A DNA stretch of 63,815 nt, the filler included, from Neolecta irregularis DAH-3 (lineage: Eukaryota), in NCBI GenBank assembly GCA_001929475.1. It is 7 parts of 7 records of this genome, joined end to end, with 100 filler letters (N's around TTAATTAATTAA, not from the genome) between each part and the next. Parts side by side here need not be neighbours in the genome. Positions count along the whole stretch, not along the records: positions 1 to 26,776 come from LXFE01000330.1; positions 26,877 to 42,858 come from LXFE01000335.1; positions 42,959 to 52,709 come from LXFE01003212.1; positions 52,810 to 60,412 come from LXFE01003217.1; 3 more parts are not named here. One strand, given 5' to 3'. Positions 11,638-59,205 of this stretch are shown here, piece by piece; position 1 is the first letter of the stretch; each line of letters begins with the position of its first letter. The notes below the pieces were generated by a model, which searched no databases, was not told the origin of the DNA, and worked only from the letters and a program-made list of their open reading frames with translations. Position numbers and translations under genes: made by a program.

Positions 11638-12321
11638 ATGCCATACTCAGTTGAAATCCCCTCCACCGATTCAGTTGTTCTCCAAGCACGCATATATTCA
11701 CCGGGACCAGCCTCAAATCGCCTAGCAATCATTGCGCATCCATGGTCGAAGTTGGGAGGCTCTCAGGACGACCATGTCGTGGTTTTCCTGGCCCGTTGTT
11801 CCTATGATAAATGCGGCTTCAGTTAACTGTCAGGTACATTAGAAGAATTCGGAATTGCGGCGTGTACCTTCAACTTTCGTGGTGTAGGCAAGAGTTCGGG
11901 AAAATCAACATTTAATGCAAGAGGGGAACAAGAAGATTATCAGGCAGTTATACGACACTTTGAGCAACGTTTCAGAAAGATAGCTATTTGCGCACGTTTG
12001 CTTCACACTCACATCTGATAGATCTAGGGATATTCTTACGGAGCATTGATAGCCTCATCAATTCCCGGCAATTGTCATGTTCTCATGTCAAAACCACATT
12101 GGTTGACAGCAAAGTCCTTGGTGTTTGGACAAACATTAAGGGATGTTGTTGACGATGAGCGATCCTTGAGGATCTATGGAGGAAGCGACTGGATTTGCGA
12201 GAAAAAGGGGTGTCAAATCCAAGGCGGCGATCATTTCTGGAGTACAGGACTGGAAGAAGTAAGAGAAATCTTGAAGGCGTGGACTATCAAGCTGTTTAAC
12301 AATAATGAATCTTCGACTTGA
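11638..12321 (+). CDS. Alpha/beta-hydrolase family protein (3 exons)
   Basis: IIAHPWSKLGGSQDDHVV, FNFRGVGKSSG, nucleophile elbow GYSYG, GGDHFW. Confidence 0.85.
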
Positions 12322-12446
12322 GATTTCCTGTACATTATTTAATATGACGTCATATTAGGGGTATGCAATCAAAGCAAGCATGATTTCTCAGTCGACCAAT
12401 CACCATTTGTCAATCCCGCATATCTTGTCCTACTTATCCTCTCTTT

Positions 12447-12704
12447 ATGTCTCCAAAACTCCCTGAAACCATCAAAAACAGCCTCATTGCCCAACGAGAT
12501 AAAATCCTCGGCGTAGCGCTGGAACCAGAAGAACGTAAGAAGCTCTCGTTACAAGAAAAGTTGGATCTAGCCATTCGCAGGATTCTCTCGGGAGTTGTTC
12601 CTATGGATGAATTAGTTCCAGAATCGGGGGATGCTCAGAAACAGGCTGTTGTAGAGATGTTGAAAAACTGGAAAAGTTTGGCTGTTGATGAGGAGTTGGA
12701 ATGA
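12447..12704 (+). CDS. Hypothetical 85-aa protein
   Basis: Clean ATG-to-stop ORF with protein-like composition; no family recognised. Confidence 0.45.
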   Translation: MSPKLPETIKNSLIAQRDKILGVALEPEERKKLSLQEKLDLAIRRILSGVVPMDELVPESGDAQKQAVVEMLKNWKSLAVDEELE

Positions 12705-13070
12705 TCGATTCAAATATTCGATATTCGGGCCTGGGTATTTGCATGCGTTAGACGGGACATGCGGGGTTTTTTTCGAGGTGTTCTCTCATGCTTTTGTCGT
12801 ACTGGTCGCATCGTTAGATACATTTGTTCAATTGCTGAACGAATATGCTTTCAAATAGACAACGGAACGACTATTGTGTCCATAGACGTTAAGACCCCAG
12901 ATCGGCAATTGTCCTCTGGCCGCATAAGCCAACCATATGGATTAAAATATTTCTTTCATGGCACTACCGTTGAGAGCGAATCTGTCCAGAAGAGGAATAT
13001 AAGAATTCTGATGTGAAGCTTGAATTTTAGTCAAATGTCTGGAAGTATAAGTGAAACGGATCATTCCTGC

Positions 13071-13387
13071 TGATAACAAGGGCCTTTAGACCAGCGAGAA
13101 TAACTGCTGATCAGGTAAGGATATATACCCTTTGGGTATATCGTACCAATACGGCAAGGTGGCTTGACGGGGAGTATATAGATATTCCTAGCCAAGTACG
13201 AATACTTAGGCTAGGCATGTCCCTTTGTAAGAAGTACGAATACATTAGGCTAGTTGTTATAACACTTGGTCTTATCGTACTTCTAAGCGCATAGCTTACA
13301 GATCACTACCGAAACATCCAGCCTTAACATCTTGCCTCGTAATTTTCAGCTACGCTAAACGAATCGGCCTGTCTAGGCCTTTTATCA
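13071..13387. mobile_element. Solo-LTR-like repeat
   Basis: 317 bp with TGATAA...TTATCA inverted termini; 13216-13337 recurs almost identically at 26655-26776. Confidence 0.65.
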
Positions 13388-55534: not shown

Positions 55535-55572
55535 CGGTACATAGGCGTACAAGCTGGCTCTGCTACATGAAT

Positions 55573-57942
55573 TTATTTTACAGCTTCAAAAATTAAAGTC
55601 ACTGCGTTCCGCACTCGAGGGCTATAATGATTTCGCAAAATACATGTTTCCCATGCAATTGAAGCAAAAGGATTGCTTGTTTCCGGGTCATCCGTATCAC
55701 CTCTAAACATCCCAGTCCCAGCTACCTCGTCTGCCGAAAACAATGCATGTAGCCGCGCATGTCGCTGTATTAGTCTCGTCAACATATTCAATATTGCCGT
55801 GCAACTTTTTTCCGGGGTGTGCAGGGACGAGATCAAGAGCCGTTTAACAAACGAGGCAGTTCTTACGATCGGGGTGTTTCTGCGTTTCATGAAAATTGCT
55901 TCAAAACACCGAATCAAGATATCCGTTTCTGTAGCCACATTGACTTTTAATTCGTAATTTTCGATATGTGTCCGCTGTTTACTTTCGATAGCCGGGTTCA
56001 GACTCCATGGGAGCAGAATTTTATAAAACTGTGTGATGAATTGAGAGAGGTCAATGTTGAATTTGGTTTCTTGTTGGCCGTTTAGTATGGCAAACGAAGT
56101 GATTATGCAGAGGAGGATATCTCGAGTTTGGGTTATTTCTCGCGACTCAGAGTCACGTAGAATATCTTTTAGTACTTCCAAAAGATCCGCAAATAAATCG
56201 AGGTTGATCAAGTGCGAGAATCTACATGTTAACAAATCTCGAGGCAGCATTTACTTTGCGAGACCCTCGAGTGTCGCGGCGATGAGCTCAGGACGACCTT
56301 GTTTCAAAATGTTTAGGTATGTCGTGAATACCAGTTTGAGGGATTCGTTTTCAAGTTGGTTTAGCTGTTCCGTGTTGACGCTTGCGTCTGCTTCTTTCAT
56401 TTCCTTTTCAATTAATATCCTCTCCTTGGCCAGTTTCCGAGCTTTCTTGGTTCGATGTTGGCGTTCATTTTTCTTACGCTTGCGATTAACCGACTCGAGT
56501 GGCTTTCCGTCCAAGTCAACTAATAACCGTAACCGTAAAAAAGTATCAAGCGTCTGAAATTTAGAATCAGAGAAAGCGCTGGATCACCTTTTCGTGAATA
56601 TTATAGCCTCGATCTTTGATCATCTTGGTTAATATCCTCACCGCTTCAAAACTTGCCCTCCCGTCTTGATCATCCTCAAACATCTCCCCTATCGCGTTTC
56701 GACTTTTAATAAACGCTGTATCGATCGTTTTCCTCGATAGTATAGCGACAATAGTGGCAAGTAAATCAGATCGAAAGTTGAAGTGGGGTACGGAAGTGAG
56801 AAGCTTGCAGATACAGTCTACCGCAATCACATTCATCCCAGTCCCATTGAATGTCTCGGCATTTTTCCTCGCTTCTGTTGGCTCGAGTTAGTGGCGACGC
56901 TTGGGTACCGAACCTTTAACGATTTTGGATAGTTCATCAATATACAATTTATAGCTTCCCAACAACGTTTCTTCAAACAGGCGTAATCGTCTCACATCCT
57001 TGGAGGTCTTCATTTTCTTCTCCTCCTCAGTGGGAGACCGGATGCGATAACCCGGTATGATATCCCTAAACACCGCGAGCTGTGTTAACAGTGCTAGCTT
57101 TTGAATAGTTTCGTTTCCTGTGATGTATACTTGTCGTATCTTTCCAAGATTCGAAATCTGGAGATTAAAAGGGCCTTGATGAAGATGTACGTTTTCTTCA
57201 GGATCTTCAATTAATGAAGATGCAAGATTCGCAAGAGTCTCTTTAGATTCAACAACGTCGTCCTTGATTACGACTTTTTCCGAGTCTTCATGATCTTGCG
57301 ATTGATCGTCTTCCTCTTCGCTGCTTGATTCTTCTTCCACAACCGTTTTTGGTCCCTTGACAGATTGCAAATATCCGTTTTGCAATTTTATTGGCAGGCG
57401 GGTAGATTCTGTTTTTGTTGTATCTTTAAGTATCCGGGGAGCCGTTTCATAATCTTGTTCGTCCTGCCAGTTCGTTTCTCTTTGAACCTCTCCCTCACTT
57501 TCCATCTCTGAATCGGGATCGTCCGTTTGAATATTATCGGTTGATCCTTGGAAACCTTCGAACTCGGAAGAATCATCAGTAGAGTCAACTTTACTCGGTT
57601 GCTTTGACATTTCAGGCTGCCTCTTGGGTTTTGTAACCTTCTTACTGTGTAGGTCAATACTAGTCTAAAGCAGCCGAACCTTAATTCTTTCTCGTTGATT
57701 TTACCGAGAAATCCGGTGAACGCGGAATTTTCTCCAAAATACTCAATGTCCCCATCTGAAACATCGACTTCCTCGCTATGAGGGATCGGAATAGACTTGG
57801 TTTTATTTTTCTTGTGCGCTGTCAATTTGGAAACTCTAAAAGTGGCCGGCATTGATTTTCCCCTGGTCTTGCGTTTGGGTTTAGTTGAGCTGCTACTTCC
57901 CGGCGCCTTCTTTCCTTTGGTAGCAGGCTTTTTTCTAGCCAT
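55573..57942 (-). CDS. NOC3: Nucleolar complex protein Noc3 (6 exons)
   Basis: EQDYETAPR, RLPIK, LAVFRDIIPGYRIR, PHFNFRSDLL, LEGLAKFSHLINLDLF, SNPFA..WE..L.NHYSP. Confidence 0.95.
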
Positions 57943-58052
57943 ACTGGGCGAGGTGGAAATGTTGGTCGGTCTTGGTGGTTCAATTTGTCGCAAATTTTTC
58001 TGGATCATATGCCGGCAAATATCTCCGCTTTCCCCACATTTAGTACTGCCAC

Positions 58053-59205
58053 ATGTCGAATCAAAAACAAAACAGCCAGAGGAAACCGACCTTGGTTATT
58101 CACTTGGTAGCGGGCGGCGCGGCTGGGCTTTGCGAAGCAATGGCTTGTCATCCTCTGGGTATTCGATTTGATTCCTGATTCCCTAATGTTGCAGACACAA
58201 TCAAAGTCCGCATGCAATTGAGCAAGCGCGCAAAGATGCCCGGGGTATCTCTGAACCAATACATATCTTGCTTACACCTAGGTCAAGCCTCGAGGATTCA
58301 TCGCTACTGGAGCGCAAATTATCAAACGTGAAACCCCATTGGGTTTGTATAAAGGGCTCGGTGCAGTGGTTACGGGAATCGTTCCAAAGATGGCCATTCG
58401 TTTTTCTTCATTTGAAATGTATAAATCGTGGTTGGCCGATGACACGGGGAAAGTCTCAACATCGGCAACTTTTATCTGCAAGTCCCAATTGTGCTATAGG
58501 GCAGCTTACAGGTCTAGCGGGACTCGCCGCAGGCACAACAGAAGCAATTGCGGTTGTCTGTCCGATGGAAGTTATAAAGATCCGGCTTCAAGCACAGCAT
58601 CACAGCATGGCTGATCCCCTTGATATTCCCAAATACAGAAATGCGGCGCACGCAGCGTATACAGTGATAAAAGAAGAAGGATTCGGTGCACTCTATCGAG
58701 GGGTCGGATTGACTGCACTAAGACAAGCTACAAACCAAGCTGTCAATTTCACGGCATACCAGGAAATGAAGAAATGGGCCAAAACCTATCAGCCCCAATA
58801 CCTGGAACTTCCAGCCTGGCAACATTTATTACTTGGTGGCATCAGCGGCGCGTTTGGACCGGTTTTTGCTTTTGAAAAAGGTGAATTTAATGGTTAGATG
58901 TCTAATGCCCCAATCGATACAATCAAAACACGTATTCAGCGAGCTCCCAACCCCGAAGGACTTCGAGGATGGACCAGATTTATGGCCGTCTCCAAAGACC
59001 TTTTCAAGAATGAGGTATTCTTTTGTAGAGTCATCATGTCGACAAGCAGGGAATCAGTGCGCTGTACAAAGGACTCACCCCGCGAATACTACGAGTAGCA
59101 CCAGGTCAAGCGGTGACCTTTATGGTGTACGAGAAAGTTAAGAATTGGATAGAATCACTCAAGGAAAGGAAAATCGAAGATGTGGTGACAGCATATGATT
59201 CATAA
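58053..59205 (+). CDS. SFC1: Mitochondrial succinate-fumarate carrier (6 exons)
   Basis: CHPLDTIKVRMQ, GIVPKMAIRF, PMEVIKIRLQAQHHSMADPLDIPKYRNA, TALRQATNQ, SNAPIDTIKTR, RVAPGQAVTF. Confidence 0.93.

Follow-up and report, generated by a model that had tools for sequence, protein, structure and literature searches.

Neolecta irregularis is an early-diverging, intron-rich ascomycete. Within a 63,815-nucleotide stretch of DNA from strain DAH-3, which consists of seven parts of genome assembly GCA_001929475.1 joined end to end and is referred to here as the window, eight segments that begin with GC and end with AG were proposed to be introns in an original prediction made from the sequence alone. 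Based on conserved proteins encoded on either side of these segments, we consider it quite likely that at least six of the eight are genuine U2-type GC-AG introns, that such introns account for approximately 5–15% of the introns here, that most of them lack the GCAAGT donor context, and that public gene models built from GT-AG introns only are wrong at those places.

As an independent sample of introns, we placed three full public N. irregularis DAH-3 models back on the DNA. The fatty acid synthase protein P0122 (NCBI: Fatty acid synthase subunit alpha [Neolecta irregularis DAH-3]; FAS2) returned 11 exact-identity blocks at 19861-25724 on the plus strand, Set2 (P0241) returned nine exact blocks at 43359-45863 on the minus strand, and guanine deaminase (P0243) returned three exact blocks at 10094-11526. 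The Set2 and guanine deaminase models were retrieved without regard to the GC claims, by a protein search that used the alignment of 16 unrelated exons. All 21 introns in the three models have GT-AG termini, and 19 of them are 35–41 nt long, with two outliers of 50 and 51 nt. Among those 19 introns, 14 have G at donor position -1 and 14 have A at +3, and the information at +4, +5 and +6 amounts to 0.07, 0.07 and 0.11 bit, respectively, with G at +5 in 6/19. The branch site (C in 15/19, T in 19/19, R in 14/19, A in 19/19 and Y in 18/19) holds approximately 6 bits, and its A is located 7–9 nt before the intron end in 17 of the 19. Branch site and length, and not the donor, carry the information in the annotated GT-AG introns. 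The tiny introns and degenerate GT donors that had been reported from manual reconstruction of this window are thus also found in a sample obtained independently of it.

All eight proposed segments are present in the DNA, with GC at the start and AG at the end of the coding strand (8/8); six are on the plus strand, and those at 15838-15872 and 39824-39862 are on the minus strand. Their lengths in coordinate order are 36, 35, 38, 36, 38, 39, 32 and 40 nt, and each segment contains A at +3 and a CTRAY-type branch site 7–9 nt before the AG. To rank them, we scored segments with an intron model that had learned from the 35–41-nt annotated GT-AG introns (n = 19) and disregarded the first dinucleotide, and the ranking pool comprised the 21,640 GC..AG segments of 20–80 nt on both strands of the whole window. 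In coordinate order, the eight segments ranked 1, 30, 2, 226, 18, 40, 17 and 158. An in-frame GT..AG alternative of normal length was found at none of the eight: such alternatives are absent at 15838 and 34844, and elsewhere they measure 48–120 nt, or 23 nt at the Cbp3 gene. These alternatives remove 4–28 codons or add three, and they score between -8.7 and +0.4, whereas the GC readings score 1.1 to 6.4. Removal of the segment restores both the frame and a conserved protein in six of the eight, at the junctions pinned by homology (11992, 25496, 34844, 39824, 55178 and 58478), and for FAS2 and Cbp3 the donor is placed to the exact nucleotide. The six best ranks (1, 2, 17, 18, 30 and 40) do not fully correspond to the six homology-supported segments, as rank 30 belongs to 15838 and the mitochondrial carrier intron at 58478 ranks 158. 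The signals are of the U2 type, with donors that read GCA[ACT]NN, GCATCC in none of them, and a CTRAY branch that is spaced as it is in the 19 annotated introns. By inspection, neither the donor motif nor the TCCTTAAC-like branch generally known for U12-type introns, which served for comparison and are in part quoted in PMC1557818, was seen in the Neolecta segments.

At two of the six junctions, the public models themselves fail. The first is located in the phosphopantetheinyl-transferase domain of FAS2, where a 38-nt segment at 25496..25533 on the plus strand, with a GCACCA donor and the branch TGCTGACA, restores WSAKEAVFK when removed; the GC donor at 25496 yields GTWSAKEAVFKSLG. The public model excises a 50-nt GT-AG intron at 25484..25533 on the same strand (GTGCCA donor) and reads GTW-T-VFKSLG, so that SAKEA is deleted. 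Among 120 retrieved proteins, 112 had a recognizable motif region, and the eight not matched by the pattern were left out. W[SCT]AKE[AS]VFK[SA][LM]G occurs in 111 of these 112 FAS2 homologues, the sole exception being the public Neolecta model, and no donor other than the GC at 25496 recreates the motif. Furthermore, the ACPS profile extends to the final residue of the exon upstream of 25496. The GC reading scores 6.3 (rank 2), compared with -0.5 for the public GT reading. Because it is a length outlier, deletes SAKEA and scores poorly, the public intron at 25484..25533 is probably a mis-prediction.

The second such junction is in the gene for Cbp3, a ubiquinol-cytochrome c chaperone, where removal of a 32-nt segment at 55178..55209 on the plus strand (GCACGC donor, branch ATCTAATC, rank 17 of the pool) restores LWRNLF. 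We aligned 60 homologues with two possible splice products and counted the 39 rows in which over 30 residues fall in the junction region, all of which carry [WY]RN at the junction (39/39). The public Cbp3 protein (P0361) is 100% identical to residues 104-336 of the window-derived query and is 230 amino acids long, with the C-terminus ..AAALWRHAWSWVI (..LWRHAWSWVI), which shows that the model reads into the intron and stops. The Cbp3 Pfam profile is matched at positions 2-97 by the upstream exon and at positions 105-138 by the downstream exon; the public protein stops at position 97 of the 140-position profile, partway through the domain, and the missing part lies in frame directly past the intron. 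A GA-AG reading of this intron (55175-55209), which at 35 nt would be closer to the typical length and gives LWNLF, was rejected: it loses the R found in all 39 aligned homologues.

The other four junctions draw their support from domain collinearity and motifs. In an SRA/YDG-domain gene, the 39-nt segment at 39824..39862 on the minus strand (GCACGG donor, branch AACTAATC, rank 40) joins ..GKPKNGL-R-YDGLYKI. Pfam SAD_SRA is matched at positions 11-106 upstream of the segment and 117-138 downstream. The SRA domain of TagI (PDB 6ghs) aligns with the upstream exon through ..IRGKDGIWSGKPKNG (GKPKNG), which indicates that this stretch is coding, and the 66-nt GT alternative, which loses nine codons, would delete it. 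When compared with UHRF1 (2zkd), the upstream exon aligns to residue 142 and the downstream exon aligns with residues 156-178, a weak match (E 1.4), with 11 residues of the Neolecta protein's own between them. As a separate observation, among solved structures the fungal SRA/YDG domain encoded at 39865-40227 (minus strand) is matched best by the SRA domain of TagI, a restriction endonuclease of bacteria (6ghs, E 6e-12), compared with E 9e-8 for UHRF1. In the mitochondrial carrier gene, the 40-nt segment at 58478..58517 on the plus strand (GCAAGT donor, branch AGCTTACA, rank 158) lies between repeats 1 and 2 and joins ..STSATFI-S-GLAAGTTEAI. Pfam Mito_carr positions 47-94 fall in the upstream exon, which extends 12 residues further; the match of the downstream exon begins at position 12, so that these 12 residues plus the split codon provide 13 residues for 13 profile positions (2 + 11). 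The downstream exon also aligns with UCP2 residues 110-189, a PDB search with the upstream exon returned no match, and the in-frame GT alternatives measure 52–118 nt.

In an RSC4-like bromodomain gene, the 38-nt segment at 34844..34881 on the plus strand (GCAAAC donor, branch AGCTGACG, rank 18) joins ..FAKLPSK to KQYADYYKRIQKPISL. The 22-residue exon after 34881 aligns from its first residue with Bromodomain positions 24-43, and positions 48-83 are matched by the exon that follows. The exon before 34844 (..THFAKLPSK) contains no GT dinucleotide, and an in-frame GT..AG alternative is likewise absent. In an alpha/beta-hydrolase gene, the 36-nt segment at 11992..12027 on the plus strand (GCACGT donor, branch ATCTGATA) is the top-scoring of all 21,640 GC..AG segments in the window. 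The exon after 12027 opens exactly with GYSYG, the nucleophile elbow, and the preceding exon ends ..RKIAIC. In-frame GT alternatives of 48–114 nt would cost 5–27 codons, and three of the four would lose GYSYG. Taken together, collinearity with Pfam or PDB entries and the presence of motifs across the junction support the prediction of GC-AG introns in the SRA, carrier, bromodomain and hydrolase genes.

Several points weigh against these conclusions. The 14-residue exon upstream of 34844 has no Pfam Bromodomain match, and we read it as fitting the F..LP motif. The match of the hydrolase upstream exon is weak (Hydrolase_4 positions 26-68, E 0.01), and the downstream exon returned neither a Pfam match nor a useful PDB match. 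Two of the eight segments had been proposed to restore a start codon, and neither was confirmed, which leaves the original prediction with the six homology-pinned introns. One is a 35-nt candidate at 15838..15872 on the minus strand in a gene for an RNPS1-like RRM/RS protein (GCAAGC donor, rank 30), which was said to split the ATG. There the frame is open through the segment without an intron, no upstream ATG is in frame, and an RRM_1 domain lies downstream; an AT|G split by a GC-AG intron is possible. The other is a 36-nt candidate at 32858..32893 on the plus strand, which has the classical GCAAGT donor and a 3' part that scores poorly (score 1.1, rank 226). Neither of its flanking exons matched Pfam. 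In the PDB, the upstream flank weakly matches a reductase (E 1) and the downstream flank, also weakly, cyclin A2 (E 0.23), so that the two may not belong to one gene; moreover, a Met in frame some 11 codons downstream could serve as the start. In addition, the three fully modelled public genes are a non-random sample, the annotated introns of Set2 and guanine deaminase include no GC-AG intron (0/10), and estimates of the total number of introns across 11992-58517 range from 35 to 110. Finally, frame-blind tests that make no use of homology showed no excess of GC. A dynamic-programming gene finder, which was allowed GT and one further first dinucleotide at a time, used 0 GC introns, and 14 other dinucleotides gained 1–8 spurious introns each. 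High-scoring orphan 3' ends, for which no good GT partner exists, numbered 22 for GC, 38 for AA, 24 for AC and 21 for GG, and GC represented 4.6% of first dinucleotides among the segments of that scan. Junctions that join open reading frames (ORFs) without a GT solution numbered 7 for GC, 9 for TA and 8 each for CC, GA and GG (threshold 3, U+D >= 120).

The frame-blind tests have no power because neighbouring starts and wrong frames near true 3' ends swamp the counts, and any start near a true 3' end scores well because the donor carries little information. Long wrong-frame ORFs are common in the window. A GC..AG segment that joins two ORFs is consequently not special, and the case for GC-AG introns rests on the homology-pinned junctions only. 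A self-trained gene finder was also tried and dropped, as it called 1,610 'introns', or was too strict (26), or placed 20 introns in FAS2 compared with the 11 annotated.

Beyond the eight proposed segments, we identified a candidate GC-AG intron in an OPA3-like gene, a 37-nt segment at 37464..37500 on the minus strand with a GCACTT donor and a score of 5.6, which joins ..ILKQQ to AQQHPKFRR. The exon that follows aligns from its very first residue with positions 23-70 of the OPA3 profile, and the sole in-frame GT alternative is 118 nt long. The upstream exon is unmatched and needs a frame change: within 37300-37600 on the minus strand, ATG..LKLTSFLIRT is read in one frame and ..SKLIATILKQQ in another, from the same bases at approximately 37530-37545. 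This frame change reflects either a one-base assembly error or an oddity of the gene. A further GC..AG candidate at 4893-4929 on the plus strand scores 6.3 and joins protein-like ORFs of 75 and 100 codons; an in-frame GT..AG segment of equal length is located 19 nt upstream, and neither exon matches Pfam.

How frequent GC-AG introns are depends on the number of introns with which they are compared. The original prediction was drawn from approximately 110 reconstructed introns, a total that we did not confirm: extrapolation from the density in the three public models (21 introns in ~9.1 kb of coding sequence) gives ~85, and correcting a signal scan for false positives yields 35–47, a figure biased downwards because training and scoring used the same introns. 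The count of GC-AG introns is six when restricted to the well-supported ones and eight when the two uncertain ones are included, to which the OPA3-like candidate can be added. We estimate from these sequence-based counts that the GC-AG share in the window is raised to roughly 5–15%. GT-AG introns average 98.7% in fungi (PMC7072748). The earlier figure of one intron in ten that is not GT-AG is possible, though not established, with a denominator of 35–110.

We also considered whether the GC-AG introns are real and yet occur at an ordinary genome-wide rate of 1–2%, such that the window holds a chance or hand-picked cluster and the spliceosome is normal. This explanation draws on the fact that a single 64-kb window was analyzed and on the 0/10 count in Set2 and guanine deaminase. 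Under a Poisson model with a 1% rate, the probability of at least six GC-AG introns is 0.001 for 110 introns and ranges from 0.00025 to 0.0045 across 85–150 introns (P <= 0.005 for any denominator up to 150). With a 2% rate, the corresponding probability is 0.025 for 110 introns and 0.008 to 0.084 across 85–150, and the value of 0.08 at 150 introns is compatible with chance. The OPA3-like candidate, which lies outside the earlier list, also argues against a hand-picked cluster, and we consider an ordinary rate unlikely.

Still less probable is that the public GT-AG models are right, in which case the proteins would truly lack the motif or be truncated and the GC readings would be an artefact of restoring homology. 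As the frame-blind tests illustrate, some dinucleotide that joins two ORFs can nearly always be found, and RNA-seq support is reported for 99.4% of genes in the public annotation, according to the genome paper (PMC5309816). However, RNA support at the level of a gene says nothing about single junctions. FAS2 of Neolecta would stand alone among 112 in lacking KEA, which is invariant in the transferase motif, Cbp3 would end within a domain, at position 97 of its 140-position Pfam profile, with the remainder in frame past the intron, and the alternative GT introns are length outliers (50 nt and 66 nt) with poor scores, all of which makes this explanation very improbable. Least credible of all is that C at +2 reflects assembly or consensus errors, or strain polymorphism, at true GT donors: the frame change in the OPA3-like gene indicates that the assembly may contain errors, but six to nine independent T-to-C errors would be needed, all at donor +2, in an assembly with a reported 199-fold coverage (PMC5309816) and at sites where the surrounding exons match public proteins exactly.

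Five of the eight GC donors (GCACGT, GCACCA, GCAAAC, GCACGG and GCACGC) lack the GCAAGT context, from which they differ within +4 to +6, and all five are homology-supported, as the original prediction had described for several of its GC donors. We compared ten GC donors, comprising the eight proposed and two extra candidates, with the 19 annotated GT introns. The GC donors match CAG|G.AAGT at a mean of 3.7/7 positions, compared with 3.2/7 for GT donors (p = 0.19), and G is found at +5 in 6/10 and 6/19, respectively (p 0.24). Because the GC donors match the U1-complementary consensus slightly, and not significantly, better, some ordinary donor compensation may still operate at these introns. 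C at +4 (GCAC..) occurs in 5/10 GC donors and 3/19 annotated GT donors, numbers that are too small to judge.

The best-supported reading of these observations is ordinary U2-type splicing under intron definition. Neolecta introns are very short (35–41 nt), with a strong CTRAY branch approximately 8 nt before the AG and a 5' site that has little beyond G|GTA. A strong branch near the AG and a narrow length range would leave the donor little to specify, and a T-to-C change at +2 might thus be tolerated more often than elsewhere, with weak dependence on U1 pairing as the enabling factor; we infer that the GC-AG introns are spliced as read. Because the public gene models admit only GT-AG introns, they err at these sites, either by taking a longer GT intron or by running on into the intron until a stop. 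With respect to the suggestion that introns here are set by length and branch point under a permissive spliceosome, the pattern it predicts is seen in the annotated introns (~6-bit branch, 35–41 nt), which bears out the first part; the permissive spliceosome is a reasonable hypothesis that would fit the sequence. In its most extensive form, the 5' site in Neolecta would be read with near-zero pairing beyond G+1 and A+3, the intron would be measured from the branch within 35–41 nt, and +2 would be weakly selected, so that uncompensated GC-AG introns reach at least 5% genome-wide, with other rare donors perhaps, in connection with an altered U1 5' end, U6, U1C, Prp8 or Prp28. We view this form as possible but doubtful. 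Rfam returned 0 matches in the window, snRNAs included.

These introns share features with several known systems and depart from each. Like U2-type GC-AG introns of animals and plants, they have GC at +1/+2, AG at the 3' end and an ordinary branch site. In contrast, GC-AG introns constitute 0.37–0.87% of introns in five model species and show a compensating consensus, in that the rest of the donor is nearer to consensus than in GT introns (PMC1557818), whereas the Neolecta window has ~5–15% and 5/8 donors without GCAAGT. The resemblance to short introns of other Taphrinomycotina and other fungi is in shortness, in a CTRAY branch near the 3' AG and in being of the intron-definition type, and the GC introns conform to this with lengths of 32–40 nt and a branch A 7–9 nt from the end. 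In fission yeast and the majority of fungi, GTANGT is retained and +5 is usually G. Neolecta differs in having G at +5 in 6/19 and ~0.1 bit at each of +4 to +6, and its length range is unusually narrow compared with other fungal short introns, at 35–41 nt in 19/21. Several percent of introns that are not GT-AG are also known elsewhere: Meyerozyma guilliermondii has ~6.67% major non-canonical splice sites, and Eurytemora affinis and Oikopleura dioica have ~10% minor non-canonical sites (PMC7072748). However, the counts for those species are annotation-based and mainly concern GA-AG in the animals, and the supported class in Neolecta is GC-AG only, with the sole GA-AG alternative tested (55175) contradicted by 39/39 homologues.

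The most concrete new result is that public Neolecta gene models miss GC-AG introns and are wrong at those places. The public N. irregularis protein set, which seems to have been built with GT-AG introns only, serves comparative studies of fungal multicellularity and intron evolution. Its damaged proteins include FAS2, which lacks the transferase motif, and Cbp3, which lacks the C-terminal part that continues the Pfam domain, and intron counts and orthologue alignments built on the set therefore inherit these errors. Neolecta has been described as intron-rich, with 4,202 introns in 1,211 orthologues (PMC7940399). A search of literature on Neolecta and Taphrinomycotina genomes and splice sites, judged by titles and the opening of abstracts, returned nothing on splice-site usage in Neolecta; it is not described in the searched passages of PMC5309816, PMC8476143 and PMC7940399, and the words 'intron' and 'splice' are absent from the main text of the genome paper (PMC5309816). 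If the reading of the window is correct, a fungus with several percent of uncompensated GC-AG introns and with GT donors nearly devoid of information past +3 would provide a natural case for how a major spliceosome locates a 5' site with minimal U1/U6 pairing.

Additional observations concern the public models and the window itself. The 51-nt GT-AG intron of the Set2 model, at 44250-44300 on the minus strand, is a length outlier, and exactly at its junction the Set2 protein is approximately four residues shorter than 13 aligned homologues. We sought a better splice for this intron and found none; 44250-44300 may be another mis-modelled junction. The public FAS2 model also excises a 36-nt intron at 24200-24235 on the plus strand that has perfect intron signals, is in frame and stop-free, and has an ORF that is continuous through it. 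The window has a G+C content of 42–45% and contains 558 N in regular runs. A pattern of 44 N, 12 bases and 44 N occurs six times, at 26777-26876, 42859-42958, 52710-52809, 60413-60512, 61538-61637 and 62639-62738, and three additional runs of 10 N are present; these look like scaffolding or masking marks and not biology.

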